Source of the DNA: Spirochaetales bacterium | Lineage (GTDB): Bacteria; Spirochaetota; Spirochaetia; Treponematales; UBA12059 | Assembly: GCA_036769135.1 (NCBI GenBank) | Contig: DAIPLR010000002.1 | Span: 4,797 to 48,582, forward strand | DNA: 43,786 nt | Direction: 5' to 3' | Shown: piece by piece, positions 25,975 to 43,309 of the stretch | How the letters are laid out: each line of letters opens with the position of its first letter | How positions within the stretch are numbered: position 1 is the stretch's first letter | Notes under the pieces: model-generated | Seen by the model: the letters and a program-made list of their open reading frames with translations, nothing else | What the model was told of the DNA's origin: nothing | Database searches by the model: none | Position numbers and translations under genes: made by a program

Positions 25975-26638
25975 ACCCCGAGGCCTCGCGGCCGGACCGG
26001 GCCGAGGCCTCGCGGCCGCCTTCGCCATGGCGCTCCTCGGGTCGTGCAGCCTGGATTACGGCCAGGCCATGCTCAAGGAGCTGGAGGCGAGCCTGCCCGA
26101 CCTCGTCCTCTACGACTTCACCCATACCGTCGTTGAGGGCGGGAGCCCGCGCTTCAGGCTTCGGGCGGAGCTCGGCGAGAGCTATAGGCGCGACCAGCGC
26201 ATGGAGCTTTTCGGCGTCGAATTTACCGAATTCGACGCCGAAGGCGAGCCGCTCGCCGAAGGCCGAGTCGACCGCGCCACCTTCTTTACCGATACCGAGA
26301 GCGTCGTCCTGGACGGCGAGCTGCGCTTCGTCAGGAAGAGCGACGGCCTGGCTTTCGAATCGAGCTACCTGCGCTGGAACGCGGGCCAGCGCTACTTATC
26401 GAGCCGCGGCGACGCGCTCACGACGATCGAGGACGGCTCGGGCGCCCGCGTCTCCGGCGGCGGCTTCTCAGCCGACGCGGCCCGGCGCAGCTTCTCATTC
26501 GCCGGCGGCGCCGAGGGGACGATCGGCCTGGCCGACGGGGCTGCTGACGGGACGGCCGGCGACGACGCTTCAGGCGGCGACGACGCTTCAGGCGGCGACG
26601 ACGCTTCAGGCGGCGAAGCGGGCGCGGGCTCGCCGTGA
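25955..26638 (+). CDS. LptC-like periplasmic lipoprotein with C-terminal (GDDASG)x3 repeat
   Basis: Position is immediately upstream of lptA-lptB. The size and beta-rich composition fit, and a signal peptide with lipobox LLGSC is present. This is a synteny-based call. Confidence 0.45.
   Translation: MVKNGLRPRGLAAGPGRGLAAAFAMALLGSCSLDYGQAMLKELEASLPDLVLYDFTHTVVEGGSPRFRLRAELGESYRRDQRMELFGVEFTEFDAEGEPLAEGRVDRATFFTDTESVVLDGELRFVRKSDGLAFESSYLRWNAGQRYLSSRGDALTTIEDGSGARVSGGGFSADAARRSFSFAGGAEGTIGLADGAADGTAGDDASGGDDASGGDDASGGEAGAGSP
26558..26611 (+). repeat. perfect 18-bp tandem repeat x3 (GGCGACGACGCTTCAGGC) inside the lptC-like gene, encoding GDDASG x3
   Basis: The repeat was read directly from the sequence. 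Confidence 0.9.
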
Positions 26639-27288
26639 GGCGCTTCAAGGCGGCCGCCGTCGCGGCCATGATCGCGCTCGCCGCGCTATCGATCGGGGCC
26701 TCGGCCGATGATATCTCCTTCGCGGCCGACTCCATGAGCGGCTCGATGCGGCGGGGCGAGGGGCGGGTGAGCCTCGTCGGACGGGCTTGGGTCCGGGCCG
26801 GCGCCGTTACCATCCGCGCCGATCGTATAACGCTCTGGGGCGATGATTATCGCTACGTAGAGTGCTCTGGCGCGGTGACGGCATCCGATGAGGAGCGGGG
26901 GCTCTCGCTCGCCGCCGACGCCCTGTTCTATGATCGGCGGCAGAAGCTCATGCGGCTGTCGGGGGGCGCGTCCATGGAGGACGCCAAGAACGAGACGGTC
27001 GTGAAGGCGGAGTTCATCGAATACGACGACCTGAAGGACCTGGCCTTGGCCCAGATCGGCGCCCGCATCCTCAAGGGCGAGATAGCGGCGCGCGCGGAGT
27101 TCGTGCGCTTCGACCGCGCCGCTGAAACCTTGGAGCTCTCCGGCCAGCCCTACGTCCGCAGGGGCGGCGACGAGTACCGCGCCCAGCGCATCAGCGTCAA
27201 GCTGGATACCGAGGCCATACGCCTCGAGGGCGCCGTTAGCGGCACGGTCCTCGACCGGGGCGGTTCCGCCGAAGGCGGCGGCCGGTGA
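26635..27288 (+). CDS. lptA: LptA/OstA-N-like periplasmic LPS transport protein
   Basis: It has a signal peptide and an OstA-like beta-jellyroll sequence pattern. It is translationally coupled (4-nt overlaps) between the lptC-like gene and lptB. Confidence 0.6.
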   Translation: MRRFKAAAVAAMIALAALSIGASADDISFAADSMSGSMRRGEGRVSLVGRAWVRAGAVTIRADRITLWGDDYRYVECSGAVTASDEERGLSLAADALFYDRRQKLMRLSGGASMEDAKNETVVKAEFIEYDDLKDLALAQIGARILKGEIAARAEFVRFDRAAETLELSGQPYVRRGGDEYRAQRISVKLDTEAIRLEGAVSGTVLDRGGSAEGGGR

Positions 27289-28055
27289 GCGGCGCGCTTC
27301 CGGCCGCGCCCGCCCTCAGGGAGGGCGGGGACCACGTCCTTGCGGCGGAGGGCCTAGCCAAGCGTTTCGGTAAGAAGGTCGCCGTCAAGTCGGTCGGTTT
27401 CTCGATGAGATCCGGCCGCATCGTCGGGCTCCTGGGCCCGAACGGCGCCGGGAAGACGACCGTGTTCTATATGACGGTCGGCTTCTTAAAGCCCGACGCC
27501 GGACAGGTGCTCCTGGACGGCCGGCGCTTGACCGGCCTCCCGATGTACCGACGCGCCCGGCTGGGCATCGCCTACCTGCCCCAGGAGCCTTCGGTATTCC
27601 GTAAGCTCACGGTCGAGGCGAACGTCCGCGCCATCCTGGAGACGCGCCCGGACTTGAACGCCGCGGAGCGGACGAGGACGCTCGAGGCGCTCCTCTACGA
27701 ATTCGGCATAGAATCGCTACGGAAGCAGCCGGCCTATACGCTCTCGGGCGGCGAGCGGCGCCGCACCGAGATAGCCCGGGCCCTCGCGCTCGAGCCTAAG
27801 TTCCTCCTCTTGGACGAGCCCTTCGCCGGCATCGACCCCATAGCCGTGCACGAGATCAAGGGCATCGTGGCCAAGCTCGCCGCCCGCGGCATCGGCGTCC
27901 TCATCACCGACCATAACGTCCGCGATACGCTCGATATCACCCACGAGGCGCACATTATCCACCGCGGCGAGCTCCTGGTCTCGGGCGACCGCGCCGCCAT
28001 CCTGGAGTCGGAGCTGGCCAGGCAAATCTACCTAGGCGAATCCTTCAGGATGTAG
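27285..28055 (+). CDS. lptB: LPS export ABC transporter ATP-binding protein LptB
   Basis: Motifs GPNGAGKTT, LSGGERRRTEIARAL and LLLDEPFAGIDP are present, and the ~240-aa size is typical of LptB. Confidence 0.85.
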   Translation: MSGALPAAPALREGGDHVLAAEGLAKRFGKKVAVKSVGFSMRSGRIVGLLGPNGAGKTTVFYMTVGFLKPDAGQVLLDGRRLTGLPMYRRARLGIAYLPQEPSVFRKLTVEANVRAILETRPDLNAAERTRTLEALLYEFGIESLRKQPAYTLSGGERRRTEIARALALEPKFLLLDEPFAGIDPIAVHEIKGIVAKLAARGIGVLITDHNVRDTLDITHEAHIIHRGELLVSGDRAAILESELARQIYLGESFRM

Positions 28056-28152: not shown

Positions 28153-29358
28153 ATGTATAAAGTTTTATTTATTGATAGAAAAACTAAGCAAATCGACGCG
28201 CTCCGCGATCTCTTAGCTCCCGAGTTCCAGCTACTGGCGAGCGCCGATTTCGACGAAGGGCTCGAGCGACTGAAGGCGCAGGGCGTCGATTGCGTCGTCG
28301 TCGACCTGGATTCCATCGACCCCGCCTGGGGCGTCAGGCCCCTGGCGAGGCTCGGCAGGCTCTCCCCGGGCAGCGCCGTCATCGTCACGCAAGCCAAGCT
28401 CGAGCCGCGGGCGGTCCTGCCGTGGCTGGAGGCGGGCGTCGCGAGCTTCTACGCCCAGCCGTACGAGGCCGATAGGCTCGCCGACGCGCTGCGCTACGGC
28501 CTAGCCGTCCGGCTCTCGGGCGGCCGTATGCGGCCCTTCCCTATCCGTTCGCCGTCGCCCCCGTGGGCTCGGCCCGGGAACGAGGCCGGCGGCGACGAGC
28601 TCCCGCCCATGATCGGCCTGAGCGAGCCGATGCGCAAGGTCCGGGTGACGCTCGCCTGCTACGCGGCCGCCGACGAATGCGTCCTGATCCGCGGCGAGAC
28701 GGGAACCGGCAAGGACCTGGCCGCCTACGAGATCCATCGCGCGTCGAACCGTCGCGAAGGCCCGTTCCGATCCATTAATTGCGCCGCTATCGCCGAAACC
28801 CTCGCCGACAGCGAGCTCTTCGGCACGACGAAGGGCGCCTTTACCGGCGCCGTCGACAAGCCGGGGCTCTTCGAGGCGGCGCGGGGCGGGACCCTCTTCC
28901 TCGACGAGGTCGGCGAGCTGTCCCTCCCTATCCAAGCTAAGCTCCTGCGGGCCATCGAGAATAAGGAGGGCGTCCGCGTAGGGAGCATGAAGACGATACG
29001 CTACGACGTCCGCCTGATCTGCGCCACCAACGCTCCCCTTACGCCGCCGGGCTTCAGGCAGGACCTGTTCCATAGGATCAGCGTGCTTCCCATAGCCATG
29101 CCCCCGCTTCGCGCACGCGACGGCGACGTGGAGCTCTTGGCGCGCGAATTCCTACGCCAGGAGGCGCCGGGAGCCCGCCTATCCGCGGAGGCCGTCGAGG
29201 AGCTCAAGGCGCGCGCCTGGTACGGCAACGTCCGCGAGCTCAAGAACTGCATCAAGCGCGCGGCGATCTTGAGCTTCGGCGCGACGGCCATAGGGCGGGA
29301 CGAGCTCCGGGACTGCCTGGACGCGGCCGACGGAGCGGGCCAGAAATACCTGGGCTAA
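28153..29358 (+). CDS. sigma-54-dependent transcriptional activator (NtrC family) with atypical N-terminal receiver-like domain
   Basis: The AAA+ sigma54-interaction domain has GETGTGKDL, the GAFTGA motif and ESELFGT. The N-terminal ~120 aa are receiver-like (VVVDLD), and the C-terminal HTH is weak. A low-GC leader and start precede it. Confidence 0.8.
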   Translation: MYKVLFIDRKTKQIDALRDLLAPEFQLLASADFDEGLERLKAQGVDCVVVDLDSIDPAWGVRPLARLGRLSPGSAVIVTQAKLEPRAVLPWLEAGVASFYAQPYEADRLADALRYGLAVRLSGGRMRPFPIRSPSPPWARPGNEAGGDELPPMIGLSEPMRKVRVTLACYAAADECVLIRGETGTGKDLAAYEIHRASNRREGPFRSINCAAIAETLADSELFGTTKGAFTGAVDKPGLFEAARGGTLFLDEVGELSLPIQAKLLRAIENKEGVRVGSMKTIRYDVRLICATNAPLTPPGFRQDLFHRISVLPIAMPPLRARDGDVELLAREFLRQEAPGARLSAEAVEELKARAWYGNVRELKNCIKRAAILSFGATAIGRDELRDCLDAADGAGQKYLG

Positions 29359-31551: not shown

Positions 31552-31680
31552 TAGCCAATTTCAAAAGTCGGTTACTTTTGAAATTGGCTTTGCGATTGCT
31601 TGCGTTTGCGTTGCAAACGCTGCGCCCAATCGCAGTTTTCTAAGGTAGCTCTTTCAAAACTCGCTGAGTTTTGAAAGAGC
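31552..31680. repeat. 129-bp structured intergenic repeat, copy 1 (three perfect hairpins; AT-rich relative to genome)
   Basis: It is 100% identical to 37322..37450. Hairpin 1 is 31554-31588 (15-bp stem GCCAATTTCAAAAGT/ACTTTTGAAATTGGC). Hairpin 2 is 31592-31633 (GCGATTG...[GCGTTTGC gtt GCAAACGC]...CAATCGC). Hairpin 3 is 31648-31680 (GCTCTTTCAAAACTC gct GAGTTTTGAAAGAGC). Confidence 0.95.
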
Positions 31681-31726
31681 TTCAGTTGAATTAAAGCTCG
31701 ATTGAGGCATTATTAAGCCGGCTTGT

Positions 31727-31755
31727 TTGACAGGCCATTGACGGCGAATTATTAT
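31727..31755 (+). promoter_or_regulatory. sigma70-type promoter (-35 TTGACA, 17-bp spacer, -10 TATTAT) upstream of the STAS-YbjN-PspA cluster
   Basis: The -35 is an exact consensus hexamer with ideal spacing. It lies 57 bp upstream of ATG 31812, and an SD GGAAGAGGAG follows. Confidence 0.5.
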
Positions 31756-31811
31756 GTTCATACAATCGGGCGATATAAACGATCTATGTTGTACCTTGGA
31801 AGAGGAGTATC

Positions 31812-32363
31812 ATGACCAACAACGATATCGTTCCTGGTTTCGATGATGAGAAGGACGATAGCCTTAAGATCAGGCTCCAGAAAATCGACACCGTCGAGAA
31901 CTGCTTAGCCCTCTTCCTCACCGGCTATATCGATACCTACAACTCCAACTTTTTCCAAAAACGGGTCGGCAAGGCCATAGACGCTGGTTTTTCTAAGTTA
32001 GTATTTAACTGCGGCGGCTTGAATTACGTGTCTTCGACCGGCATAGGTTCGTTTACCGCCTTTTTAAAGGCCGTGAAGCCCCGTAACGGCGATATCGTCC
32101 TTCTAGAGATTCAGCCCAAGGTTTACGAGGTCTTCCAGCTCCTGGGCTTCTCCCAGTTCTTCAATATCAAAGATAATCTCGATGAGGCGGTCTCCTACTT
32201 CCAGCAAGGCTCTCAGCAGAGCACGCAAACCATCTTCCCCAAAATATTCTCTTGCCCCATATGCAATAAGAAGCTTCGGGCCGCCCGTCCGGGCCGCTTC
32301 CGCTGTTCTGAATGCAAGACCATCTTGGCCATCGACAACTCCGGGCAGGTCTTCCTCGGTTAA
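31812..32363 (+). CDS. STAS-domain protein (anti-sigma-factor antagonist-like) fused to C-terminal C4 zinc ribbon; low-GC gene
   Basis: The STAS core LVFNCGGLNYVSSTGIGSFTAF...IVLLEIQPKVYEVFQLLGF is present. The C-terminus has CPICNKK...CSECK. Its GC is ~50% against ~70% surroundings, with A/T-ending codons. Confidence 0.7.
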   Translation: MTNNDIVPGFDDEKDDSLKIRLQKIDTVENCLALFLTGYIDTYNSNFFQKRVGKAIDAGFSKLVFNCGGLNYVSSTGIGSFTAFLKAVKPRNGDIVLLEIQPKVYEVFQLLGFSQFFNIKDNLDEAVSYFQQGSQQSTQTIFPKIFSCPICNKKLRAARPGRFRCSECKTILAIDNSGQVFLG

Positions 32364-32416
32364 TCGGCCTCGCTCGCCGGAAGCTCGTCGTATGGCAGAA
32401 TAGAAGGAGATAGCCG

Positions 32417-32800
32417 ATGCAGGGACTCAGCAAGGTCGAGGCCTACCTCATGGAACTGGATATATCGTACCAAGAGGTCGCCCCCGGGACCTTCTTCATC
32501 GAGGACGAGACCCGCGGGCTCCCCGGCGTCGCCGTGACCATAGACGAGCCGGTCGTCTTCATCCGCACCAAGGTGATGGCCCTGCCTAAGGCCAAATACT
32601 GCGAGCTCTTCGAGAGCCTCCTGAGGCTCAACGCGACCGATATACTCCACGGCGCCTACGGCATCGACGGGGACGACGTCGTGCTCGTCGATACCTTGGA
32701 GTACGACAATATGGATAAGAACGAGTTCGAGGCGGCCCTCGACTCGATTGGCATGGCCCTCTCCAAGCACTACGCGGTGCTCGGGGCATACCGCGACTAA
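32417..32800 (+). CDS. YbjN-domain protein (putative sensory transduction regulator / chaperone-like)
   Basis: It is 127 aa and acidic, with a YbjN-like pattern. The family is typically found next to pspA. Confidence 0.6.
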   Translation: MQGLSKVEAYLMELDISYQEVAPGTFFIEDETRGLPGVAVTIDEPVVFIRTKVMALPKAKYCELFESLLRLNATDILHGAYGIDGDDVVLVDTLEYDNMDKNEFEAALDSIGMALSKHYAVLGAYRD

Positions 32801-32817
32801 GGATTAGGAGGCTCGCC

Positions 32818-33516
32818 GTGGGCATATTCGACCGCTTTAAGACCGTCATATCATCGAACATCAACGATATGATCTCCAAGGCTGAGAATCCCGAGAAGAT
32901 GCTCAACCAGTTGATCATCGACATGAACCAGCAGATGGTCGAGTCCAAGAAGGCCGTGGCCATGGCCATAGCCGACGAGAAGAAGATCGAGCGCGAGCTC
33001 CTCGAGCAGAAGCGCCAAGCCGAGGAATGGGAACGCAAGGCCGTCATCGCCGTCAAGGCGGGCCGCGACGACCTGGCGAAGGAAGCTTTGCTGCGCAAGC
33101 AGGAGGCGGAGAACTACTACCTGCAGCTCAAGCCCCAGTGGGAGAGCCAGAAGGCGGCCGTCGAGAAGCTCAAGGAGACGCTCAGGCAGCTCCAGAACAA
33201 GATCGACGAGGCGACCCGGAAGAAGAATATCCTCATCGCCCGCGCTAAGCGCGCCGAGGCCCAGCAGAAGATTCAGAAAACCCTGACCAGCATGTCGGGC
33301 AATACCAGCGCCTTCGAGACCTTCGACCGCATGGCCAAGAAGGTGGACGAGATGGAGGCCCGCGCCGAGGCGCACGCCGAGCTCGCCGACCTGTCCCAAT
33401 CTTCCTCGCTCGAGAAGGAGTTCTCTAAGCTGGAGAGCTCCGGCGCCGGCGCGGATCTCCTCCTGGAGGAGCTCAAGCAGAAGATGCTCGGCGAGGGCGG
33501 GACCAGCCAAGGCTAA
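32818..33516 (+). CDS. pspA: phage shock protein A / IM30 / Vipp1 family
   Basis: The N-terminus MGIFDRFKTVISSNINDMISKAENPEKMLNQLIIDMNQ is canonical. It has long coiled-coil heptads and is 232 aa. Confidence 0.9.
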   Translation: MGIFDRFKTVISSNINDMISKAENPEKMLNQLIIDMNQQMVESKKAVAMAIADEKKIERELLEQKRQAEEWERKAVIAVKAGRDDLAKEALLRKQEAENYYLQLKPQWESQKAAVEKLKETLRQLQNKIDEATRKKNILIARAKRAEAQQKIQKTLTSMSGNTSAFETFDRMAKKVDEMEARAEAHAELADLSQSSSLEKEFSKLESSGAGADLLLEELKQKMLGEGGTSQG

Positions 33517-33519
33517 TCC

Positions 33520-34191
33520 GTGCGCGCGCTGTTCGTCGGCGACGAAGGACGGTACCGCGCATTGTTCGAGGGGAGCGACCCGCTACCGGGTTGCTCCCTA
33601 TTTTTTCGCGCCGCGCTCGGCGCTCCCGACCGGGAGGCCGACCGGGAGACCGACTGCCTGATCATGCCGGCGGAGGCCTTCCTGTCGGCCGGCTTCGATC
33701 TCGAGCGGCCGCCGGTCATAGGCTACGGAGAGGGGAGCCTCCTGCCGCTCTGCCTCGGCGCGGGCGCCTTCGACTATCTTCGTGAGCCCTGGGGCCTGCC
33801 GGAGCTGGAGGCGCGGGTCCGTAGGCTCCGCGGTCGAGGCTTCGCGCTCGCCGGCGCCCGTTGCGAGCTGCGGCCCCATGAGCTGCTCGGCCCCCTGAGG
33901 GGCGTGCCTCTCTCGCCGCAGGCTTATGAGGCGCTGAGGCTGCTCGTCGATCATGCTCCCCGCGCGCTCTCGGCCGAAACCCTGCATCGAGTTCTCGGCA
34001 CGAAAGCGCCGAGCGCCTTGCCTATGGCCGTGTCGCGCCTTCGAAAAGCCATCGGGATGGCCGCCGGGAGCGAGGCGGCGAGGCGACTACGCGGAACGCG
34101 GGCCGATGCGATGCGCCTACGCGCGGATACCGAAGGCCGCTGCGCGAGCGAACGGGCCTATGCGTCATACTACCTGGCCTTGGATGCCTAA
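33520..34191 (+). CDS. atypical OmpR/PhoB-like winged-helix protein with degenerate/truncated receiver-like N-terminus (GTG start)
   Basis: The C-terminal region LSPQAYEALRLLVDHAPRALSAETLHRVLG...AVSRLRKAIG resembles trans_reg_C (LTPxEFxLLxxL...RxxLxxxVWG...RLRKKL). The N-terminus lacks the canonical acid pocket. It starts 4 nt after pspA. Confidence 0.45.
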   Translation: MRALFVGDEGRYRALFEGSDPLPGCSLFFRAALGAPDREADRETDCLIMPAEAFLSAGFDLERPPVIGYGEGSLLPLCLGAGAFDYLREPWGLPELEARVRRLRGRGFALAGARCELRPHELLGPLRGVPLSPQAYEALRLLVDHAPRALSAETLHRVLGTKAPSALPMAVSRLRKAIGMAAGSEAARRLRGTRADAMRLRADTEGRCASERAYASYYLALDA

Positions 34192-34208
34192 AGGCTGCGT
34201 TCCTATGC

Positions 34209-34440
34209 CTGTGGATAAGTGGTTGATAGCTTTGAAGTGTTAAGTAAATCTCGTCTATAGACATGTAGAATCTCGATGGGCAAACGATGATATTTGAGTT
34301 TTTTGTCGCAGTTGCATGTAATTGTATGTATAGAAAGAGAATAAAATCAGGTAACTATGTAAATAAATACCGCGGCCCGTGTTCGCGCCCAACATGATTA
34401 TTTTTATTATTCTTCCGGTATGTGCGTTACTTGTGGATAA
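34209..34440. promoter_or_regulatory. AT-rich 320-bp intergenic region containing two perfect DnaA-box 9-mers (TGTGGATAA = reverse complement of TTATCCACA) at 34209-34217 and 34432-34440, each within an 11-mer TGTGGATAAGT
   Basis: The 9-mers were read directly and are in the same orientation 223 bp apart. The surrounding sequence is <40% GC in a 70% GC genome. Confidence 0.5.
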
Positions 34441-34480
34441 GTTGTGAGGCGCCTTCTGTATAACTGCCTTTGGGCTTTGC

Positions 34481-34509
34481 TTGTCAACGAGTTAGAGCCA
34501 TGCTAGAGT
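34481..34509 (+). promoter_or_regulatory. sigma70-like promoter (-35 TTGTCA, 17 bp, -10 TAGAGT) placing the TSS within ~2 nt of ATG 34518 (leaderless candidate)
   Basis: The hexamers and spacing were read directly. No SD lies before ATG 34518. Confidence 0.35.
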
Positions 34510-34517
34510 TTGACGTC

Positions 34518-35207
34518 ATGAAACGCGTCGCGGCCCTCATTGGGAAAGCCATCGGCCTCTATCTAGCCGCGTCGCTCGCGCTCGCCGTTTACGTCGGCCT
34601 GCGCGCCTACCTCGACGCCTGGCCTATGCCCTTGGCATTAGCGGCCCTCAAGGCCGGCTATACCCTGCCGCTCCTAGCCTGGACCCCGACCGCGCTCGTG
34701 TTGTACTACTCCATGAACAGGGTCATGCGGAATCGACCGCTCGGCTACCTTCTTCTCCTGGTCTGCGGGGCTTTTTTGATAGCTTGGCCGCTGGCGTTAG
34801 CGCGCTTCGGGCTCCTCAGCCTGGATACCGAGGCGACGGAGGCCTTCAGGGGAGCGGGGCGCTCGCTATCGGCCTGGTACATAAGCCTGACGGAACTCGC
34901 GCCGGCCCAGGCCGCGCTCGCCGTCGTCGGCGTCGCGTGGCTCTTGGCCTCGGCCTGGGGGCTTACGCGCCTGGTCGGCTCAAGGCCCCTGGTGGGGGCC
35001 TTCATAGCGCCGGGCGCGGTATTCGGCTTGTGGCGTCTCGCCGAGGCCTACGCCGGCGGCGCCCTCTCGCCGGCGTTCTCCTTCGTCGGCTTGAACATAA
35101 CGCCTGCCATGCAGGCCGCGGCGCTCTGCGGCCTGACGGGCTTGGGGTTCATCGGGTTGGATTTCCTGGTCGCCGCGAAGCCGGGCGCCGAGGCCGGCCG
35201 TGGCTAA
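34518..35207 (+). CDS. polytopic membrane protein (hypothetical)
   Basis: It has 6-7 predicted TM helices. I chose the start at MKRVAAL (ATG 34518) because the track's upstream start is TTG and overlaps the promoter. ATG 34500 is an alternative. Confidence 0.5.
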   Translation: MKRVAALIGKAIGLYLAASLALAVYVGLRAYLDAWPMPLALAALKAGYTLPLLAWTPTALVLYYSMNRVMRNRPLGYLLLLVCGAFLIAWPLALARFGLLSLDTEATEAFRGAGRSLSAWYISLTELAPAQAALAVVGVAWLLASAWGLTRLVGSRPLVGAFIAPGAVFGLWRLAEAYAGGALSPAFSFVGLNITPAMQAAALCGLTGLGFIGLDFLVAAKPGAEAGRG

Positions 35208-36855
35208 GCGCGGCTCGCTCTTCATCGCCTACGCCTTAGGGATCATGGCCGCGGCCTACGCGGCGGCTTTCTTCTGGCGGCTCTTGAACGTCGGCCGCGC
35301 CGACCTGCTCTTTATCTTCGCCCTGCGTTGGGAGCTCATGGGCGCCGCGCTCACCTTCGCGGCCTGGGCCCCGGCCCTGCTCCTCGTGGCGGCCGCGCTC
35401 GCGGCCGAATCCGCCGAGGGGCCGCCCGACTTCCACGCCACGGCATACGCGGTGCTCCTGCCCGGCTTCTTCTTCGCCGCGGCGCTCTCGATCCTCTTCC
35501 TCGTGGTACAGCCCTACGCCGAGGGACGCGTCGCCTTCTATGAGCGGGCGAGCGCGGAGTTCGGCGCGCGCCTGGGCGCCGCGCGCGAGCGCTACGCCCG
35601 CGGCGACTACCGGGCGGCCGAGCTCTTCGCCCGCGACGCCCGGGCCATAGACCGGGACCATCCCGAGCTTGAGAAAGTCTACGGGCTCATCCAAGAAGCC
35701 CTCCTACGGCAGGCCGACGAGGAGGCCGAGCGCGCGGCCCGCGCCCGCCCCGAGGATCCGCCCGCGCCGAACTGGCTCGTGGCCAACCGTTTCTACCTCG
35801 AGGCGCAGGCGGCGATGCGCGACGGGCGCTATTTCGACGCCCACTACCTGGCGCGGCGCTCGCTGGCGGTTTACGGAGGTCGGCGTGAGGTCCTTAGGCT
35901 CATAGACGAGAGCTGGGCGGCAATGCGCAGCCTCGAGCCGTCGGCCGAGCAAAGGGCCGACGCCGATTACTATAAGCGCAAGCTCGAGGCCTACGAGTAT
36001 TTCGCGCGCGACGACGCGCTCGAGGCCTTCAGGCGCTTCTCCGCCCTGGCGGCCGAGCGCCCCGACGATAAGGACGCGGCTGATTTCCTCGCCTTGAGCG
36101 CCCAGAGCCTCGAGCGCCGCGGTTTCTTCCTGGAGGAGAGCGAGCTGGCCTTCGGCTCGGGCGGCGGCCGCCCTCTGTCGCTTTCGATCGCGGGCGCCGA
36201 GCTCCGCGCCGAGGCGGCGGCGGAGTCGGCCTCCGGGGTCTACCTGCGCGGCGTCGCCTTCGACGACGGCGGGCGGAGCTACCGGGCCGAGCATGCGCGG
36301 CTGAACGGCGACGTACTGCAGCTGCTCGCGGTGAGCCGGCGCGACCCGTCGCTGACATGGCGGGCGCGGGCGGCCGACGGCGGCGCGCCGCCGAGTTACC
36401 TCGAGCTAGGGGGGGCCGAGGCCGCGGCGCGCCGTTACCTGGAGCTCTCCGCGCCGCCGCACGAGCTGACCCTCCTCACGCTGATAAATGGCATGGACGA
36501 CGCGCGCGAGCTCGGCGTGGACGGCGCGGGGCTGTACGCCGACCTGGCTCGCCGCCTCTCCTATCCCTTCGTCTGCGTCATCTTAATACTCATGGGCGCG
36601 GGTCTGGGGCTGCGCTTCAGGCCCCGCTCGCGTCCGAGCGCGGTCTCGTCGATATTCTGGGCCCCGGTCATGGCCGCCTTGGTCCAGCCCGTCTTCGGCC
36701 TCGCCGAGGAGCTGTCTAAGACGCCCTTGGACCTGCTGTCGCGAGCGCTGCCCGGCGGTACCTTCATAGCCGCTTGGCTAGCCTTCCTCGGCGCGGCCGT
36801 CGCCTGCTCGCTCTTCGTCGCGGAGCGCATCGCGCGCCATGCGCCGCGCTCTTGA
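35200..36855 (+). CDS. large membrane protein: N-terminal TM bundle, ~370-aa Ala/Arg/Glu-rich helical (TPR-like) soluble domain, C-terminal TM bundle
   Basis: The hydropathy pattern was read from the translation. It overlaps its neighbours by 8 and 17 nt, suggesting coupling. I recognise no family. Confidence 0.5.
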   Translation: MAKRGSLFIAYALGIMAAAYAAAFFWRLLNVGRADLLFIFALRWELMGAALTFAAWAPALLLVAAALAAESAEGPPDFHATAYAVLLPGFFFAAALSILFLVVQPYAEGRVAFYERASAEFGARLGAARERYARGDYRAAELFARDARAIDRDHPELEKVYGLIQEALLRQADEEAERAARARPEDPPAPNWLVANRFYLEAQAAMRDGRYFDAHYLARRSLAVYGGRREVLRLIDESWAAMRSLEPSAEQRADADYYKRKLEAYEYFARDDALEAFRRFSALAAERPDDKDAADFLALSAQSLERRGFFLEESELAFGSGGGRPLSLSIAGAELRAEAAAESASGVYLRGVAFDDGGRSYRAEHARLNGDVLQLLAVSRRDPSLTWRARAADGGAPPSYLELGGAEAAARRYLELSAPPHELTLLTLINGMDDARELGVDGAGLYADLARRLSYPFVCVILILMGAGLGLRFRPRSRPSAVSSIFWAPVMAALVQPVFGLAEELSKTPLDLLSRALPGGTFIAAWLAFLGAAVACSLFVAERIARHAPRS

Positions 36856-37312
36856 GTCGGCTATCCGCGCCCTCCGCTCGGCCGCGGCCCTCGCCTTCGA
36901 ACGATCGCGCGGCCGACGCGGGCGCATCGCGGGGACCTGCCTAGGCGCGCTGAGCGGCGGCCGCCACTTTACCTTCGGCGCGCTCGCCGGCTACGTACTC
37001 GGCGCCCTGGTCGACGCGTACTTCGAGAGGCGCGCCGCGCCGGGCGACGGATACCGCGATGAGGCGGCCGCCGGCCGCGGGGCCGAACGGCGGGGCGATG
37101 CCGAGGCCGAAACGGCGGAGCGCGCTAGGCTCTACGCCCTCTTCGGGCTCGAACCCGGCGCGCCTCCCGACGAGCTAAAACGGGCGTACCGCCGCCTCTG
37201 CCGTGACATGCATCCCGATAGAAGCGGCGGCTCCGAGGAAGGCTTCCGCGCCATCAAAGCCGCCTATGACAGGCTCGCCGACGCCCCCTCCGGGGCGAAG
37301 CCGGATAGCTAG
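36839..37312 (+). CDS. membrane-anchored J-domain co-chaperone (DjlA-like)
   Basis: It has an N-terminal TM (FTFGALAGYVLGALVDAYF) and a C-terminal J domain LYALFGLEPGAPPDELKRAYRRLCRDMHPDRSGG with the HPD motif. Confidence 0.65.
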   Translation: MRRALESAIRALRSAAALAFERSRGRRGRIAGTCLGALSGGRHFTFGALAGYVLGALVDAYFERRAAPGDGYRDEAAAGRGAERRGDAEAETAERARLYALFGLEPGAPPDELKRAYRRLCRDMHPDRSGGSEEGFRAIKAAYDRLADAPSGAKPDS

Positions 37313-37321
37313 TACGAACCG

Positions 37322-37450
37322 TAGCCAATTTCAAAAGTCGGTTACTTTTGAAATTGGCTTTGCGATTGCTTGCGTTTGCGTTGCAAACGCTGCGCCCAAT
37401 CGCAGTTTTCTAAGGTAGCTCTTTCAAAACTCGCTGAGTTTTGAAAGAGC
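37322..37450. repeat. 129-bp structured intergenic repeat, copy 2 (identical to 31552..31680); overlaps the last 8 codons of sppA
   Basis: It is an exact 129/129 match in direct orientation 5,770 bp from copy 1. It lies between the convergent djlA-like and sppA genes. Confidence 0.95.
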
Positions 37451-39871
37451 CTCACTGAGCAGGGACGAGGGCTCCAGGAGGAGCGGACCCGTGCCCATCG
37501 CCTGTATCGTATCCGCCGCCGAGCCGAGCTCGGTTAAACTCCGGATAAGCCCCGAGCGCGCCAGGCCGCTAGCCGACATGAGCCACGGTCCCCAGTCCAT
37601 GAGCGAGCCAGGCGACTCGTAGCGTAGCTTTATCGGGCCGCCGAGCCTCAGGCGCATCGCCCCTACGGCGGCGTCTAAGCCGCCTATCTCGTCGACCAAG
37701 CCCAGCTCCTTGGCCTCGGCCCCGAGCCAGACCTGACCCTTGCCTAGTTCGTCGGCCCGCTCCAGGCTCAGACCGCGGCCCTGGCTCACCGTCGCGACGA
37801 AGCGGCCGTAGATAGACGCGATGGCCTCGTTCAAGGCCGCGGCATCGCCCGGCCTGTGGGGCAAGAGGGGATTGGCGAAGGCGGCGTTGTCGCCGGGACC
37901 TACGCTCTCCGCCTTGACGCCGAGCTTATCGACCAAGCCGCTCGCGTCCGGCATGAGTCCGGTGACGCCGATCGAGCCGGTGATCGTGCCCTCCTCGGCC
38001 CAGATGCGCTCGGCGAAGGCCGAGATATAGTAGCCGCCCGAGGCGGCGTAGCCGCCCATGGAGACGAACAGGGGCTTGCCGGCCTCGCGGAAGCGTCGTA
38101 CCTCCCGCGCTATGTAGTCGCTGACCGCGGCGCTTCCGCCGCCCGAATCGACGCGCAGGATGACGCCGGCCACGGCCGCGTCTTCGCGCAGCTCGGCCAG
38201 CCTGGCGGCGGCCGATTCGCCTATGCTGGCGCCGGCGACGCCGGGGCCTTCGATGATGGAGCCCGAGAGCCCCAGCACGACCACGGCCTTGGCCAGCGGG
38301 TGCGCGCCCCACGCCCCGTCCCGGGCCGCGCGATAGGCCTCGATGCCGATGCGCTTCGTCCAGCCGCGTCCTTCGAGCCCTTCCAAGAACTCGTCGCGGT
38401 AGGAGAGCTCCTCCGCCAGGCCGGCGGCGACGGCCTTGGCCGAGACCAGGTAAGGGCCGGCGGCGATGACGGCCGAGGCCTCCGCGCCTAGCCTTCCGGT
38501 GCGCCCTGCGGCTAGCCTGGCGGCCGCCTGGCGCGACAGCCCGCCTAGGTAGCGCTCGAGGCCCTCCCGCTCGGCGGCGGTCATGCCGTATTCGGTGAAG
38601 GCGTTATAGGCGGTTTTCTCGTCATGGGAGCGCAGGGTATGGAAGCGCAGCCCGAGCTTATCGAAGAGCCCCCTAAAATACAGCCGCGCGCCGCCTAACT
38701 CGACGAGCGCCACGGAACCGTTGGGGTCGATCGCCAGATAGTCGGCTTGGGAGGCTAGGTAGAGATAGGCGCCGCGCCCGGCGTTTCGTACGTAGGCGTA
38801 GACGGGCTTTCCGGTAGCGCGGAAGGCGTCCAGGGCGCGGGCGAAAGCCTGACCGGCCGCATCGGAGGGCGGCTCCGGGGGTTCGAGGAGGACCAGGGCG
38901 CCGATGCGCGGGTCTTCCGCGGCCGCCAGCACCGATTCGACGTAGAGGTCGAAGCTCGCGCGGCCGCTCCGCCTGGCCGCCATACCGGCCGGTAGGACGA
39001 GCCCGGCGTCCTCGGCGCCGTCGATGACCAGCGCCGCGGCTTGGGGCGCTACGAAGGCGGGCCGCGCCTTGAAGCGGGGATCGGCGCGCAGGGCCGCGCC
39101 GAAGCCCAGGCGCTCGCCGGCCGGGGAGGCCGCGGCGGCCGCCAAGTCGGGGACGGCCAGGGTCGTCTCCGTCGGCCCGAGCGCCATCGAGAGGCTCAGG
39201 CTTACGGCGCCCGAGCCGAAGTCGTAGGACGCCCCTATCCTGGCCGCGTCGTCCAGGCGGAGGCGGGCGCCCGCCTCCCGCCAGCTAAAGCCGGCGTCGC
39301 CGTAGCGGGCCGTGGCCGAGAGGGTCAAGACGGAGCTAAGCTCGGGCCGCGACTCGATGAAGGCCAGCGGCCGGACGGCCAGGCCGAAGTCCCAGGACGG
39401 CGAGGCCGATAGGGCATCCGTCAGGCCTAGGCCGAGCGATAGGGCTGCGTTCGGGCGGATCAGGTAGCTGAAGTCCCAGGCGCCCCCGCTTCGGTAGCGC
39501 AGGCCGCTCGAGAACGCCTTGCCCATGGCGAAGGAAACGACGAGCTCCTGGCTCGGCGAGCCCTGCCCGTCGTCGGCGTAGCGGTAGAGGAGGCCCGGGA
39601 GGCCGAAGGCCAAGGCGTAGGGCGCGCCTTCGAGCCGGCGGGCGGCCAGCTCGTCGAGAGAAGCCTGGGTATAGAAGCCGGCGGCGAATTCGAGTGTCCG
39701 ACCCCAGGCCGCAGGGTTGTAGAACTGGTCCCAGAGGCTATCGGGATCGGGCTCGGCGCTGAAGGCCGGCGCTTCGAGGTAAGCCCGGCTGGCCTGGGCT
39801 CCGACGCCTGAAACGGCGAACAGGACGAGGAGTATGCCCGCGATCGCGGCGGCGAATCGAGTTTTGCTCAT
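37424..39871 (-). CDS. sppA: signal peptide peptidase SppA (tandem S49 domains, 67K type) with ~300-aa N-terminal signal-peptide-bearing beta-rich extension
   Basis: Two S49/ClpP-fold regions are present (GKPVYAYVRNAGRGAYLYLASQADYL...; GKPLFVSMGGYAASGGYYISAFAERIWAEEGTITGSIGV). I chose the start at MSKTRFAAAIAGILL (RBS GAAAGG). The C-terminal ALSKLSEF* is encoded by hairpin 3 of the repeat. Confidence 0.8.
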   Translation of the reverse strand: MSKTRFAAAIAGILLVLFAVSGVGAQASRAYLEAPAFSAEPDPDSLWDQFYNPAAWGRTLEFAAGFYTQASLDELAARRLEGAPYALAFGLPGLLYRYADDGQGSPSQELVVSFAMGKAFSSGLRYRSGGAWDFSYLIRPNAALSLGLGLTDALSASPSWDFGLAVRPLAFIESRPELSSVLTLSATARYGDAGFSWREAGARLRLDDAARIGASYDFGSGAVSLSLSMALGPTETTLAVPDLAAAAASPAGERLGFGAALRADPRFKARPAFVAPQAAALVIDGAEDAGLVLPAGMAARRSGRASFDLYVESVLAAAEDPRIGALVLLEPPEPPSDAAGQAFARALDAFRATGKPVYAYVRNAGRGAYLYLASQADYLAIDPNGSVALVELGGARLYFRGLFDKLGLRFHTLRSHDEKTAYNAFTEYGMTAAEREGLERYLGGLSRQAAARLAAGRTGRLGAEASAVIAAGPYLVSAKAVAAGLAEELSYRDEFLEGLEGRGWTKRIGIEAYRAARDGAWGAHPLAKAVVVLGLSGSIIEGPGVAGASIGESAAARLAELREDAAVAGVILRVDSGGGSAAVSDYIAREVRRFREAGKPLFVSMGGYAASGGYYISAFAERIWAEEGTITGSIGVTGLMPDASGLVDKLGVKAESVGPGDNAAFANPLLPHRPGDAAALNEAIASIYGRFVATVSQGRGLSLERADELGKGQVWLGAEAKELGLVDEIGGLDAAVGAMRLRLGGPIKLRYESPGSLMDWGPWLMSASGLARSGLIRSLTELGSAADTIQAMGTGPLLLEPSSLLSEALSKLSEF

Positions 39872-39978: not shown

Positions 39979-41001
39979 TTATTCAGCGACGCGCCAGCGG
40001 AGGGTCCGCCCCGCGGCGAGCGGTACGGCGCCGTCCATGAGCTCGGGGACGCGCCACGGCGAGCGCTCGAGGCGGAGGAGGCCTTCGTTTAGCGGAAGGC
40101 CGTAGAACGCGGCGCCGGCCCGGCTCACGAAGCCCTCGAGCGCATCCAGCCGGCCGAGCTCCTCGAAGGCCTCGGCCAGGAGGGCCAGGGCGGTCGGGGC
40201 CGCGTAGCAGCCGGCGGCGCCCGCCGCCTTGGCTTCGGGCGGGTGGGGAGCCGAGTCGCTGCCGAAGAAGAACTTGGGCGAGCCCGAGCTCGCCGCCTGG
40301 CGCAGGTCGTCGCGGCTGCGCTCGGACTTGAGGACGGGCTTACAGTAGAGCGACGGCGTAAGGCGCTCGCCTAGGAGGTCGTCTATAGTGAACGAGAGGT
40401 GGTGGGCGGTGATCGTGGCGGCGACGCGATCGGGCCAGGCCTTGACGGCCTGTACCCCGGCCCGCGACGAGACGTGCTCCATGACGAGCTTCAGGCGCGG
40501 GTAACGTCCGATCACGCGCTCCAGGACGGGCAGGAAGGCCTCCTCGCGCTCCAGGACGGGGCGGGACGGATCCTCGGCGTGCACGGAGAGGACGAGGCCG
40601 AGCTCCTCCATAGCCGCCAGCTCCTCGGCTACGGACTCGGGCGAGGGGACGCCGTCGGCGGCGTTCGTGGTGGAGCCGATCGGATAGTACTTCCCGGCTA
40701 GGGCGCCGGCGGCGGCGCAGTCGCGCACGGCGGCCGCGCCCATGCCCGGCAGGAGCTTGAAGGCGAAGAGCGGCGCGCAGGCGTAGCCCGCCATGCCCGC
40801 CAGGACGGCGCGGCGGTAGTCGCCCAGGGCGCGGCCGGACGAGATCGGGGGGACGGTGTTGGGCATGGCGAGCGCGCGGCCGAAGTGGCGCGCGCTGCGG
40901 GCCGCGTAGGCGGCCAGGGGCGGCCCCTGCCGCAGGTGGACGTGGAAGTCGTCCGGGCGCCGGAGCTCCAGGAAGGCGCCCGCGGCGCTATCGCCCGCCA
41001 T
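39979..41001 (-). CDS. pyrC: dihydroorotase (homodimeric type, PyrC)
   Basis: The motif ELRRPDDFHVHLRQG...ALAMPNTVPPI aligns with E. coli PyrC KIRRPDDWHLHLRDG...AIVMPNLAPP. I chose the start at MAGDSAAG (41001) and rejected the upstream Arg/Ser-rich extension. Confidence 0.85.
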   Translation of the reverse strand: MAGDSAAGAFLELRRPDDFHVHLRQGPPLAAYAARSARHFGRALAMPNTVPPISSGRALGDYRRAVLAGMAGYACAPLFAFKLLPGMGAAAVRDCAAAGALAGKYYPIGSTTNAADGVPSPESVAEELAAMEELGLVLSVHAEDPSRPVLEREEAFLPVLERVIGRYPRLKLVMEHVSSRAGVQAVKAWPDRVAATITAHHLSFTIDDLLGERLTPSLYCKPVLKSERSRDDLRQAASSGSPKFFFGSDSAPHPPEAKAAGAAGCYAAPTALALLAEAFEELGRLDALEGFVSRAGAAFYGLPLNEGLLRLERSPWRVPELMDGAVPLAAGRTLRWRVAE

Positions 41002-42664
41002 GGAAGGAGAGCTCCAGGATCGAGACGTCGTCCGCGAAGGGCTCCCGGGCGCTCCGCTCGCGTACCGCGTCGACGATGCGGCGTATGGGCGAGATGCAGT
41101 CGGGCGAGCGCGCGCAGTCGGCGCTATGGGCCTCGAAGAGCGCGACGAAATCGGCCCAGCGCAGGAGCGAGCCATCCTTGAGGCGCACCTCGTAGAGGCC
41201 GTCGCTGAACAGGTAGAGCTGCGAGCCCAGCGGCACGAAGGCTTCCCGCTCGGGGAAGGCGGCTGTATCGTCGACGCCGATGATCGGCCCCTCCGACACC
41301 AGCTCCTCAGCCTTCTCCCCGGGCCTGCAGAGCAGGGCCGGCGGCGCCCCGCCGGTGGCGTAGCGTACGGCGCGGCGGGTCGGATCCCAGACGCCGTACC
41401 ATATCGTAAAGTACATATTGTTTTGATCCTCGATGCGGAACGACTCGTTGAGCCACGCGAGCACCGAGCGAGGCGAGCCGTAGTCCAGGCCGCCCAGGCT
41501 CTTGGCCTTGAGCAGGTTCATGACCGTCACCGAGAGGAGGGCCGCCTCGATACCATGGCCGCTCACGTCGATCAGGAAGAAGGCCAGGCGGCCGTCTTCC
41601 AGGCGCTGGTACGAGAAGCTGTCGCCGCCGAGGCTCAGCGAGGGGATGAACTCCCAATCGATGGCCAGGCCCGGCCAGCGCACCCGTTGCGGCAGGAGGC
41701 TCCGAACGTACGCGGCCGCGTCGCGCAGCTCCGCGTTGAGCCTGGACTGGGCCCTGGCCAGGCTCGCGAGCGCCTCCTCGTTCCGCCGCTTGTACTCCCG
41801 CTTCTCCAGGATGTTGTTGATGCGCGCCTTAAGTATGATCGGGTTGAAATCGCGTGGTAGGTAATCCTCGGCGCCCAGCTCGAGGCAGCGCGCTATCGAG
41901 GCGTCGTCCTCCAAGGCGCTCACCATGATCACGGAGACCTCGCGTAGGGCCTCGTCTGCATGTATCGAATCTAAGAACTGAAAGCCGTTCATGCCCGGCA
42001 TCATGAGGTCCACGAGGGCTATGTCGAAGGACGCTTGGCGCAGGATCGACAGCGCCTCCTGCCCGTCCGCGGCCTGGCAGCTCAGGTGGCCCTGGCGTTC
42101 CAAGAGGCGTACGAGGAGCTCGCGGTTGATCGCGTCGTCGTCCACCACCAGGATGCGGCCGGGCCGGACCGCCTTGCCGGCCTCATCGCCGAGGGCGACG
42201 GACGCGGCGTCGGGCACGAAGGCGCCGCGCTCCTCCCGGTCGCGCATGAGGTCGACGAGCGAGTTTACGGCGTCCTGGACGCGGCGGAGATCCTCCTCCG
42301 GGCCGGGCTCGAGGCGCAGGCGCTTGACGGCTTGGATGGCGTTCATCAGGTCATAGATGCGGCCGTAGGCCTCGTCACGCAGCGCCTCGACGCGGGCGGA
42401 GTCCGGGGCCGCCGGTTCGACGCCCGCCGGGGCGGCCGGCGCGGCGGCCGTCGATACGTCGGCGTCGAGGGCCAGGAGGTAGGCTAGCATCGGCGCTTTA
42501 AGGGCGGCCGCCGCCGCCTTGAAGCGCGCGACGGCAGGCTCGGCGTCCGGCGGCGCGGCGGCCTCGGCGACCATCTCGGCGTAGCCTAAGGCATGATTAA
42601 GGAAGGTCCTCGCCTCGTGCCTGAACCGGAGCTGCCCGCCCGCTTCGCTACGTTCGCTCGGCAT
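40988..42664 (-). CDS. response-regulator receiver fused to PP2C/SpoIIE serine phosphatase (RsbU/RsbP-like), with N-terminal HisKA-like H-box helix
   Basis: The receiver is RILVVDDDAINRELL...DIALVDLMMPGMNGFQF. The PP2C region is LIDVSGHGIEAAL...LYLFSDGLYE. The N-terminal ~110 aa contain LRFRHEARTFLNHALGYAEMV, resembling the HisKA phospho-acceptor motif (H-E-x-R-T-P-L-N). Confidence 0.8.
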   Translation of the reverse strand: MPSERSEAGGQLRFRHEARTFLNHALGYAEMVAEAAAPPDAEPAVARFKAAAAALKAPMLAYLLALDADVSTAAAPAAPAGVEPAAPDSARVEALRDEAYGRIYDLMNAIQAVKRLRLEPGPEEDLRRVQDAVNSLVDLMRDREERGAFVPDAASVALGDEAGKAVRPGRILVVDDDAINRELLVRLLERQGHLSCQAADGQEALSILRQASFDIALVDLMMPGMNGFQFLDSIHADEALREVSVIMVSALEDDASIARCLELGAEDYLPRDFNPIILKARINNILEKREYKRRNEEALASLARAQSRLNAELRDAAAYVRSLLPQRVRWPGLAIDWEFIPSLSLGGDSFSYQRLEDGRLAFFLIDVSGHGIEAALLSVTVMNLLKAKSLGGLDYGSPRSVLAWLNESFRIEDQNNMYFTIWYGVWDPTRRAVRYATGGAPPALLCRPGEKAEELVSEGPIIGVDDTAAFPEREAFVPLGSQLYLFSDGLYEVRLKDGSLLRWADFVALFEAHSADCARSPDCISPIRRIVDAVRERSAREPFADDVSILELSFHGGR

Positions 42665-42783: not shown

Positions 42784-42945
42784 CCGTACTCCCTGCGCCA
42801 TTTCTCTAATCGTTATCATCCTAGCCCATGGTATCGCATTTATCAACGCCGAATTCGGCGTCGCGGCCGGCGCCGCCGCGCTTGCCCGCCCCGGCGGACC
42901 ATGCTATGCTGGTATATCCCTTTTTGTATCGATAGGACGAAGCGC

Positions 42946-43305
42946 ATGACCGTACGCGAGATCGTAAGCACCCTCGACGGCGTGCTCCTGACCGGCGAGG
43001 AGCTCCTGGACCTGGATATCAAGGCCGCCTGCGGCGCCGATCTGATGTCCGACGTCATGGCCTTCGTTAAAGAAGGCGTGGTGCTCTTAACCGGGCTCGT
43101 GAATCCCCAGGCCATACGCACCGCCGAGCTCATGGATATCAAGGTCGTGGTCTTCGTGCGCGGCAAGAAGCCGCCGAAGGACATGCTGGATGAGGCGGCC
43201 GCCAACGGTATGGCCGTCGTCGCTACTAAGTATTCCATGTTCCTAGCCTGCGGCCGCCTCTACGAGGCCGGCCTGCGCTCCGGCGGCACCCGGGACATCC
43301 AGTAG
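42946..43305 (+). CDS. DRTGG-domain protein
   Basis: It is ~120 aa (MTVREIVSTLDGVLLTGEELLDLDIKAACGADLMSDVMAFVKEGVVLLTGLVNPQAIRTAELMDIKVVVFVRGKKPP) and fits DRTGG domain proteins that pair with HATPase anti-sigma-like kinases. I chose the start at ATG 42946 with AGGA upstream. Confidence 0.55.
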   Translation: MTVREIVSTLDGVLLTGEELLDLDIKAACGADLMSDVMAFVKEGVVLLTGLVNPQAIRTAELMDIKVVVFVRGKKPPKDMLDEAAANGMAVVATKYSMFLACGRLYEAGLRSGGTRDIQ

Positions 43306-43309
43306 GCCC

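Follow-up and report, generated by a model that had tools for sequence, protein, structure and literature searches.

We have analyzed a window of 43,786 nucleotides (nt), by which we mean the whole stretch of DNA read here, from a Spirochaetales bacterium (GenBank assembly GCA_036769135.1, contig DAIPLR010000002.1, positions 4,797 to 48,582), and within it a block in which seven plus-strand open reading frames (ORFs), among them a gene of the PspA/IM30 family, fill positions 31812-37312. The window has a guanine-plus-cytosine (GC) content of about 68%, and the gene calls are identical in independent metagenome assemblies of the same organism (99.9% identical). All seven ORFs appear in the ORF list at the coordinates below, and Pfam and NCBIfam searches bear out the genes and domain identities that had been assigned from the letters alone in what we call the sequence-only reading:

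31812-32363, + strand: STAS-zinc-ribbon (STAS-ZnR) gene, 183 amino acids (aa); Pfam STAS 1.8e-21
32417-32800, + strand: CesT/Tir-like (YbjN-clan) chaperone-fold gene, 127 aa; CesT_Tir_1 3.8e-29
32818-33516, + strand: PspA/IM30 family gene, 232 aa; PspA_IM30 2.7e-54
33520-34191, + strand: atypical OmpR/PhoB-family regulator gene, 223 aa; pseudo-receiver and winged helix
34518-35207 (ORF from 34470), + strand: orphan-family polytopic membrane protein gene, 229 aa from ATG 34518
35200-36855, + strand: LptG/LptF-superfamily permease-like gene, 551 aa; LptF_LptG 1.5e-7
36839-37312, + strand: DjlA-like membrane-anchored J-domain protein gene, 157 aa; HPD motif, DnaJ 5.6e-11

As predicted from its layout, the block is two co-directional operons separated by an AT-rich gap, and, on balance and with moderate confidence, we take it to be an ancestral Spirochaetia locus whose two operons serve the upkeep of the inner membrane and envelope.

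Conservation of the locus was followed in 80 loci from the genome collection, with the denominators 74, 62 and 55 giving the loci that could be assessed for a given feature. STAS-ZnR relatives are encoded by at least 513 species genomes, and pspA follows the STAS gene in 69 of 74 loci, a CesT-like gene lies between the two in 57 of 74, and the LptG-like gene is found downstream in 50 of 62; three complete genomes repeat the order SDR - STAS - (CesT) - PspA - Trans_reg_C - membrane protein - LptF_LptG-like - DnaJ. Across the 80 loci, STAS is 79-96% identical to the respective window protein, PspA 47-94%, CesT 36-84%, the regulator 24-46% and the LptG-like protein 20-43%, with STAS-ZnR being 79-80% identical to its counterparts in Spirochaeta thermophila, Salinispira pacifica and Gracilinema caldarium. 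The genes thus form an evolutionarily conserved module, and what the sequence-only reading had named as fatal to its proposal (no co-transcription of the first four genes, STAS-ZnR homologs never neighboring pspA elsewhere, a regulator ORF with no homologs) was in no case found. The foreign origin which it had suggested for the STAS gene on account of a GC content of ~50% is, on the other hand, ruled out by codon-position GC and synteny: with values of 0.47, 0.35 and 0.70 at the first, second and third codon position (GC1, GC2 and GC3), as compared with a GC3 of 0.80-0.90 in neighboring genes, the low GC comes from the amino-acid composition of a highly constrained protein, which is fixed, and this, together with synteny across Spirochaetia, means that the gene is not foreign DNA. 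Judged by these comparisons, the locus is vertically inherited and spirochaete-wide rather than a foreign island.

The first operon carries the following signals:

31727-31766, + strand: overlapping sigma-70 promoters P1 (TTGACA-17-TATTAT, 31727-31755) and P2 (TTGACG-17-TACAAT), offset by 11 nt
33570-33609, + strand: intrinsic-terminator-like hairpin and T-run, 13 pairs, -26 kcal/mol, then TTTTTT

The near-consensus sigma-70 promoter that had been noticed before the STAS gene is indeed present, and about 84 of 86 related loci carry a TTGACA-17-TAnnAT promoter 60-140 nt before the STAS start, the tandem P1/P2 form being retained throughout the clade in which STAS is at least 85% identical. The claim that it is the only promoter did not hold, given that the membrane-protein operon has a conserved promoter of its own (see below). 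The first four genes are separated by 53, 17 and 3 nt, the second of these being the distance from the CesT-like gene to pspA. The hairpin lies 54-93 nt past the pspA stop, within codons ~17-30 of the regulator gene, and 47 of 76 loci have a comparable hairpin with T-run in the first 160 nt past pspA, which in 42 of them is at -15 kcal/mol or stronger, as compared with a background rate of 6.5% at that threshold in the same loci (per-sequence folding). Stem sequences differ between loci, such that position and structure are conserved and sequence is not. Since the hairpin and T-run are translated (as ...PFSLFF...) and the regulator frame stays open and conserved across them, the terminator is embedded in coding sequence. 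Collectively, the short gaps, the single conserved promoter and the predicted terminator after pspA fit co-transcription of STAS-CesT-PspA, and we surmise that the terminator would cap most transcripts after pspA, thereby keeping the regulator scarce.

PspA/IM30 proteins are bacterial relatives of ESCRT-III that seal the inner membrane. In the window protein, the PspA_IM30 match spans residues 2-221 of 232, while the NCBIfam equivalog of E. coli PspA (TIGR02977) gives 167 bits vs. a cut-off of 243, a score that does not make it an ortholog of that protein. The 127-aa product of the preceding gene matches CesT_Tir_1 with 101.7 bits vs. a cut-off of 27, ahead of YbjN (9.6e-07). The two genes had been described as the known PspA-YbjN pairing; the adjacent partner gene is there, but its product is better named CesT/Tir, making the pair the CesT/Tir-PspA dyad described by Ravi et al. 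(2024, mSystems; PMC11237479), a paper that never mentions STAS. The location of pspA beside regulatory genes in Spirochaetota has been noted without detail (PMC9239133), and no paper on how pspA is regulated in spirochaetes came up in our literature searches. At the other end of the window, 30 kb from pspA, a Band_7/SPFH (flotillin-like) gene adjoins one for a 231-aa membrane protein without a Pfam match (439-2582, - strand). Band-7 proteins are known companions of PspA in other phyla.

In the product of the first gene of the operon, a STAS domain of the SpoIIAA/RsbV type follows an acidic N-terminal tail and is joined through a variable linker to a C4 zinc ribbon at the C-terminus. The match of this protein to Pfam STAS exceeds the cut-off, and so does that to NCBIfam ant_ant_sig (58.3 vs. 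53.45). Among more than 2,700 homologs, the best 120 are 181-194 aa long and 78-94% identical, and include proteins of Spirochaeta thermophila, S. cellobiosiphila, Salinispira pacifica and Gracilinema caldarium; ~180 clusters (50% identity) match at E <= 1e-30, and most of those listed share the ~180-aa architecture. Among 12 orthologs, 108 of 183 columns are invariant, covering the N-terminal tail (NNDIVPGFDDEKDDSLKI), the STAS core and the ribbon (CPIC-x13-CSxCKTILAIDNxGQVFLG), the sole variable part being the linker at 131-141. The CPxC-x13-CxxC ribbon could not be assigned to a named family, with weak matches to generic zinc-ribbon models that were all below cut-off; among these is the DUF2089 ribbon, which has been linked to Psp partner systems (PMC11237479). 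The same ribbon motif is also repeated ~ten times in a 2,731-aa protein (P0189). Our literature searches yielded no study of this STAS protein.

With respect to the STAS domain, the family profile matches TM1442, SpoIIAA and RsbV in the PDB, and the invariant Ser75 (LNYVSSTGIG) falls, in the alignment with SpoIIAA and TM1442, on the serine of their DS(S/A)G motif, which is the phosphorylated position. The AlphaFold model (predicted local distance difference test, pLDDT, 81.8) is closest by Foldseek to SpoIIAA in complex with SpoIIAB and to RsbV bound to RsbW, with target TM-scores of 0.88-0.91; among its PDB matches no solved structure spans the zinc ribbon, and no MlaB chain occurs among the 50 best. 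These data make Ser75 a candidate phospho-switch serine, in what would be a SpoIIAA/RsbV-type switch with its phosphorylatable serine intact. Three tandem genes for distant relatives adjoin a 465-aa HATPase_c_2 protein (locus L087, 6842-8552), which renders partner switching plausible for the wider family.

It had further been suggested that the STAS protein connects to partner-switching proteins elsewhere in the window, namely an RsbW-like HATPase_c_2 kinase (43310-43759, directly after a DRTGG gene, the pair spanning 42901-43759) and a response regulator-PP2C phosphatase (RR-PP2C, 40988-42664), whose genes lie 3.7-6 kb from the block. Homologs of the kinase are found near the locus in 0 of 80 genomes and those of the phosphatase in 4 of 80, and the link is therefore without comparative support; nor does the DRTGG-HATPase_c_2 pair accompany the STAS locus in other genomes.

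The regulator gene begins 3 nt past the pspA stop (0-7 nt in the clade of the window), with a conserved N-terminus, (M/V)RxLFVGxEEEY, in that clade. Taken alone, the window protein matches Trans_reg_C at 1.3e-4 (22.4 bits vs. a cut-off of 26.2), and a profile of 22 positional orthologs matches OmpR/PhoB regulators with E-values as low as 9.9e-22, some of them over the full length, including 2hqr. With 56 positional orthologs that align, we consider the ORF real, whereas its activity in this genome is less certain. The receiver is degenerate, as proposed in the sequence-only reading: it has no phospho-acceptor Asp, and Glu stands in place of the conserved Lys in DYLREPW, compared with the typical DYLxKPF. 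Given that the regulator is not phosphorylatable at the usual Asp, it is probably controlled by protein contacts.

The two operons are separated by a gap of 280 nt, AT-rich, whose length and low GC are conserved across loci:

34210-34218, + strand: box 1, TGTGGATAA, the complement of the DnaA box TTATCCACA
34219-34431, no strand: AT-rich spacer between the boxes, GC 0.37
34432-34440, + strand: box 2, TGTGGATAA, in the same orientation as box 1
34481-34509, + strand: promoter P3, extended -10, TTGTCA-17-(TG)cTAGAGT, conserved across clades

The two boxes of the window are 222 nt apart, start to start. In 1.18 Mb comprising the loci and the window, TGTGGATAA occurs exactly 116 times vs. about 9 expected by chance, and about 95 of these copies are situated in the inter-operon gap, all on the + strand and usually paired. 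An extended consensus, TGTGGATAAcyTGTG, is present in 61 distinct loci, often as tandem units 11 nt apart, and in these the box spacing clusters at about 210, 221, 232 and 246 nt, i.e. at roughly whole helical turns. The boxes are retained in loci without pspA and the regulator, and gap and boxes are both absent from S. thermophila. We have considered whether the gap might be a replication origin or a DnaA-titrating (datA/DARS-like) site rather than a site of promoter control, as could be argued from: 1) the perfect match of the boxes to the DnaA-box consensus, in direct orientation and flanking an AT-rich stretch of ~220 bp; 2) their conservation across the class, with tandem repeats; 3) the position of the locus about 46, 73 and 262 kb from record position 1 in three complete genomes. 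However, a comparison of the two sides of the gap in 49 loci shows no switch in GC skew (mean -0.008 on the left, -0.018 on the right) and the flanking genes are co-directional, which makes an origin at this site unlikely; the absence of the element from S. thermophila, and of dnaA or dnaN from the ORFs listed for the window, speaks against this explanation as well, and the conservation past the 9-mer (cyTGTG) equally fits tandem sites for another protein. An origin is thus not supported, and origin and titration site taken together we regard as very improbable. DnaA or another direct-repeat-binding protein is a likely, still putative, ligand of the boxes, and, in keeping with promoter control, the helically phased TGTGGATAA arrays may be sites at which such a protein would control the second operon.

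P3, with the consensus TTG(T/C)CA-17-TGcTA(C/G)AGT, lies downstream of box 2. Across loci, the start codon, (A/G)TGAAA, is found 6-9 nt past the -10 element (8 nt for the ATG of the window), a distance from which we predict a leaderless mRNA and a gene start at 34518; this ATG is the most likely start of the membrane-protein gene, with TTG 34470 and ATG 34501 as alternatives. The small membrane protein belongs to no known family in Pfam or a PDB profile search, and these, together with hhalign, gave no support for it as an LptF partner. The 551-aa protein matches LptF_LptG with 31.2 bits vs. a cut-off of 27.9 in its C-terminal half only. Its AlphaFold model (pLDDT 82.8) has three transmembrane (TM) segments, a tetratricopeptide-repeat (TPR) region of ~190 residues, also found by sequence, a beta-rich domain and three more TM segments, and the top 12 PDB matches of the model are all LptG/LptF, with E-values down to 2e-5 and TM-scores of 0.13-0.40, these low scores being due to the TPR insert. 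The J-protein has 157 aa vs. the 260-290 aa usual for orthologs, with HPD kept; it scores 28 bits vs. a cut-off of 162 for the NCBIfam DjlA equivalog, and the Salinispira ortholog has a weak DjlA_TM match. Altogether, operon 2 looks like a unit for envelope-lipid export and proteostasis.

The LptG/LptF matches invite the thought that STAS-ZnR might be an accessory of an ABC lipid transporter made up of the LptG-like permease, the orphan membrane protein and an LptB-type ATPase, in the way that MlaB serves MlaFE. In this genome, lptC, lptA-like and lptB genes are indeed situated at 25955-28055, 4-6 kb upstream, and the STAS gene stays beside the membrane-protein/LptG-like/DjlA operon even after loss of pspA. 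The adjacency of lptCAB is not conserved at other loci, however, and the STAS model is nearest to SpoIIAA/RsbV, without MlaB among its best matches, and has an invariant residue at the phospho-serine position; moreover, STAS and permease are in different operons, separated by a terminator and a regulatory gap. We therefore judge an MlaB-like role improbable, and retain a regulatory role beside PspA in our reading of the locus. Within the lptC-like ORF, we also noticed three direct copies of a GACGCTTCAGGCGGCGAC-like unit, offset by 18 nt (26546-26616).

Directly after the lptCAB genes, a layout that resembles the lptCAB-rpoN arrangement of proteobacteria, lies a gene for a receiver-AAA+ sigma-54 activator without a helix-turn-helix (HTH) domain (28153-29358), which is syntenic 1.5-3.5 kb upstream of STAS in 45 of 55 loci. 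The canonical PspF/sigma-54 arrangement had been declared absent; this is correct insofar as scans across loci found no conserved sigma-54 promoter upstream of STAS or operon 2, but not as regards the activator gene. A sigma-54 match, TGGCTTTGCGATTGCT, within the repeat described next is at chance level (8 matches vs. 9.3 expected) and is lost in divergent repeat copies.

The block is flanked by two copies of a 133-nt repeat:

31552-31684, no strand: repeat copy 1, between the SDR gene and the STAS promoter
37322-37454, no strand: repeat copy 2, overlapping the end of the convergent SppA gene

The copies agree at 132 of 133 positions and enclose the seven genes exactly. Both are predicted to form three near-perfect hairpins (folding z-scores -8 and -10), and the repeat is found in the independent assemblies too; Rfam gave no match for the window, the repeat or the gap. 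Direct repeats in this position, along with the low GC of the STAS gene and the gap, would extend the idea of foreign origin to a horizontally acquired island with the repeats as attachment sites. The repeat belongs, however, to a family present in 64 metagenome stretches (L088-L151; host contigs of 37-69% GC), in which identity to the window copy is 73-92% for full-length copies and as high as 99% for partial ones. In this family, compensatory changes are seen at 12 of 39 base pairs, the copies occur in unrelated contexts and in both orientations without bias relative to neighboring genes, and orthologous loci in other genomes lack the repeat. By its distribution, the repeat is best described as a dispersed element resembling repetitive extragenic palindromes (REP) or miniature inverted-repeat transposable elements (MITE), and being dispersed it is not an attachment site. 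Furthermore, the gene order, with SDR and SpoU upstream, recurs across Spirochaetia without the repeat, the block has no integrase, and its genes have a GC3 of 0.70-0.90. The island is refuted in practice, and we accord it next to no weight as against vertical inheritance of the locus. Because the last ~10 codons (ALSKLSEF) and the stop of the SppA gene fall inside copy 2 (37424-37454), the repeat may have reshaped the C-terminus of SppA.

We propose the following on how the locus might work. The strong conserved sigma-70 promoter, tandem in this clade, would transcribe STAS-ZnR, the CesT/Tir-like chaperone and PspA/IM30, with PspA as the membrane-stabilizing effector and the chaperone-fold protein as its dedicated partner. 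The embedded terminator would stop most of these transcripts, such that the pseudo-receiver regulator would be made by read-through at a low level. In this scheme, STAS-ZnR may be a regulated adaptor of the Psp system that replaces the PspB/C-PspF logic, and would, upon a postulated signal, bind PspA, the chaperone or the regulator via its ultra-conserved tail and zinc ribbon. Operon 2, from its own extended -10 promoter and with a leaderless first gene, would supply the orphan membrane protein, the TPR-bearing LptG-like permease and the DjlA-like J-protein. The full version of this proposal, in which PspA of Spirochaetia has its missing regulator or adaptor in the STAS-ZnR phospho-switch and the Lpt-like/DjlA operon is under DnaA-box control, we offer as a speculation that is rather unlikely to be correct in all its parts.

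Several observations weigh against the reading of one envelope-upkeep locus: 1) STAS-ZnR is retained in at least four loci without pspA (L042, L045, L058 and L059), which means that PspA may be dispensable for its core role; 2) the wider neighbors (sigma-54 activator, SpoU, SDR) are likewise syntenic, which makes adjacency by itself weak evidence; 3) no cognate kinase or phosphatase is conserved near the 80 loci; 4) a sigma-70 promoter so close to consensus points to expression that is constitutive and not induced by stress; 5) the recognition region of the window regulator is degraded (ALPMAVSRLR vs. RxVDxxVSRLR in the family); 6) the small membrane protein compared with the 551-aa family gave a profile-profile probability of 2.4%, so that no LptF/G relation was detectable; and 7) RNAalifold on a MAFFT alignment failed to recover the terminator as a consensus structure, a result that is uninformative because the stems differ in length and register and cannot be aligned. 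The first two of these, together with the conservation of STAS-ZnR, which exceeds that of PspA and all other neighbors, and the pairing of its distant paralogs with a HATPase_c_2 protein and not with PspA, could also mean synteny without shared function, in which case STAS-ZnR would be a highly expressed factor of general use, for partner switching or housekeeping, whose gene happens to lie before a CesT-PspA dyad that is complete in itself, all within a long block of conserved gene order. On the other hand, the single conserved promoter, the very short gaps and a terminator solely after pspA argue for one transcript, and the STAS-pspA pairing is kept across orders. We consider such a housekeeping role a possibility to be taken seriously, albeit not a probable one, and continue to favor a shared role in the upkeep of the inner membrane and envelope.

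The control of PspA/IM30 outside proteobacteria and firmicutes is largely unknown, and the locus provides a testable candidate for such control in the form of a 183-aa STAS-zinc-ribbon protein, about 80% identical across spirochaete orders, encoded by the first gene of a pspA operon. It also offers three cis-elements: a coding-embedded terminator that would set the ratio of effector to regulator, phased DnaA-box-like arrays and a leaderless promoter. Should the boxes bind DnaA, they would represent a conserved link from replication control to envelope biogenesis, and DnaA-box control of operon 2, if true, would couple envelope-lipid export directly to the replication initiator. Cultivable relatives carrying the locus include Gracilinema caldarium and Salinispira pacifica.

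Compared with known systems, individual parts of the locus are familiar while their combination differs. The STAS-ZnR protein shares the STAS fold and the conserved serine at the phosphorylation position with the SpoIIAA/RsbV antagonists; unlike these single-domain proteins of ~110 aa, it carries a tail and a C4 ribbon, lacks a conserved adjacent kinase, phosphatase or sigma factor, and is far more conserved in sequence than is usual for such proteins. The regulator resembles the atypical orphan OmpR regulators of the HP1043 type (PDB 2hqr) in its full-length OmpR/PhoB similarity, a receiver without phospho-acceptor chemistry and the lack of a cognate histidine kinase gene nearby, but forms a separate family, translationally abutted to pspA and with a terminator in its 5' coding region. 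In operon 2, the 551-aa protein is akin to LptB2FG in its LptF_LptG match, its LptG/LptF top structures and its arrangement of 3 TM - periplasmic beta domain - 3 TM; it differs in the TPR insert before the beta domain, in a partner membrane protein that is not detectably LptF-like and in an operon without an ATPase gene. The last gene of the operon encodes, as with the DjlA co-chaperone, a membrane-anchored J-domain with HPD, albeit far below the NCBI DjlA cut-off. Similar to the extra-origin DnaA-box clusters of E. coli (datA/DARS) and B. subtilis, the gap presents clustered consensus boxes in a conserved non-coding stretch that is not beside dnaA; in contrast to them, the strong boxes number only two per locus, or form short tandem arrays, a promoter follows them directly, and conservation extends 6 nt past the box.

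As for the Psp systems themselves, the locus agrees with the CesT/Tir-PspA dyad operons of the yjfI-yjfJ type (PMC11237479) in having a CesT/Tir gene directly upstream of pspA in the same operon, without PspB/C and without a PspF-dependent promoter. It departs from them in the STAS-ZnR gene before the dyad and the pseudo-receiver regulator after it, and the band-7/flotillin, polyamine and AAA+ partners of those operons are absent from the block. With the E. coli psp system (pspF-pspABCDE), it has in common a PspA-family effector with a dedicated transcription regulator encoded alongside, the gene of a bacterial enhancer-binding protein (sigma-54 activator) nearby, and a hairpin after pspA that would favor pspA-rich transcripts. 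It differs from that system in its sigma-70 type promoter, no conserved sigma-54 promoter having been found, in having no PspB/C among the neighbors, in an adjacent regulator that is an OmpR-type pseudo-receiver, and in an enhancer-binding protein that possesses a receiver, lacks an HTH and has its gene separated from the operon by three others. Taken together, we regard the locus as a variant of the Psp-type system, working by a mechanism that we postulate here and with STAS-ZnR as a new putative partner.

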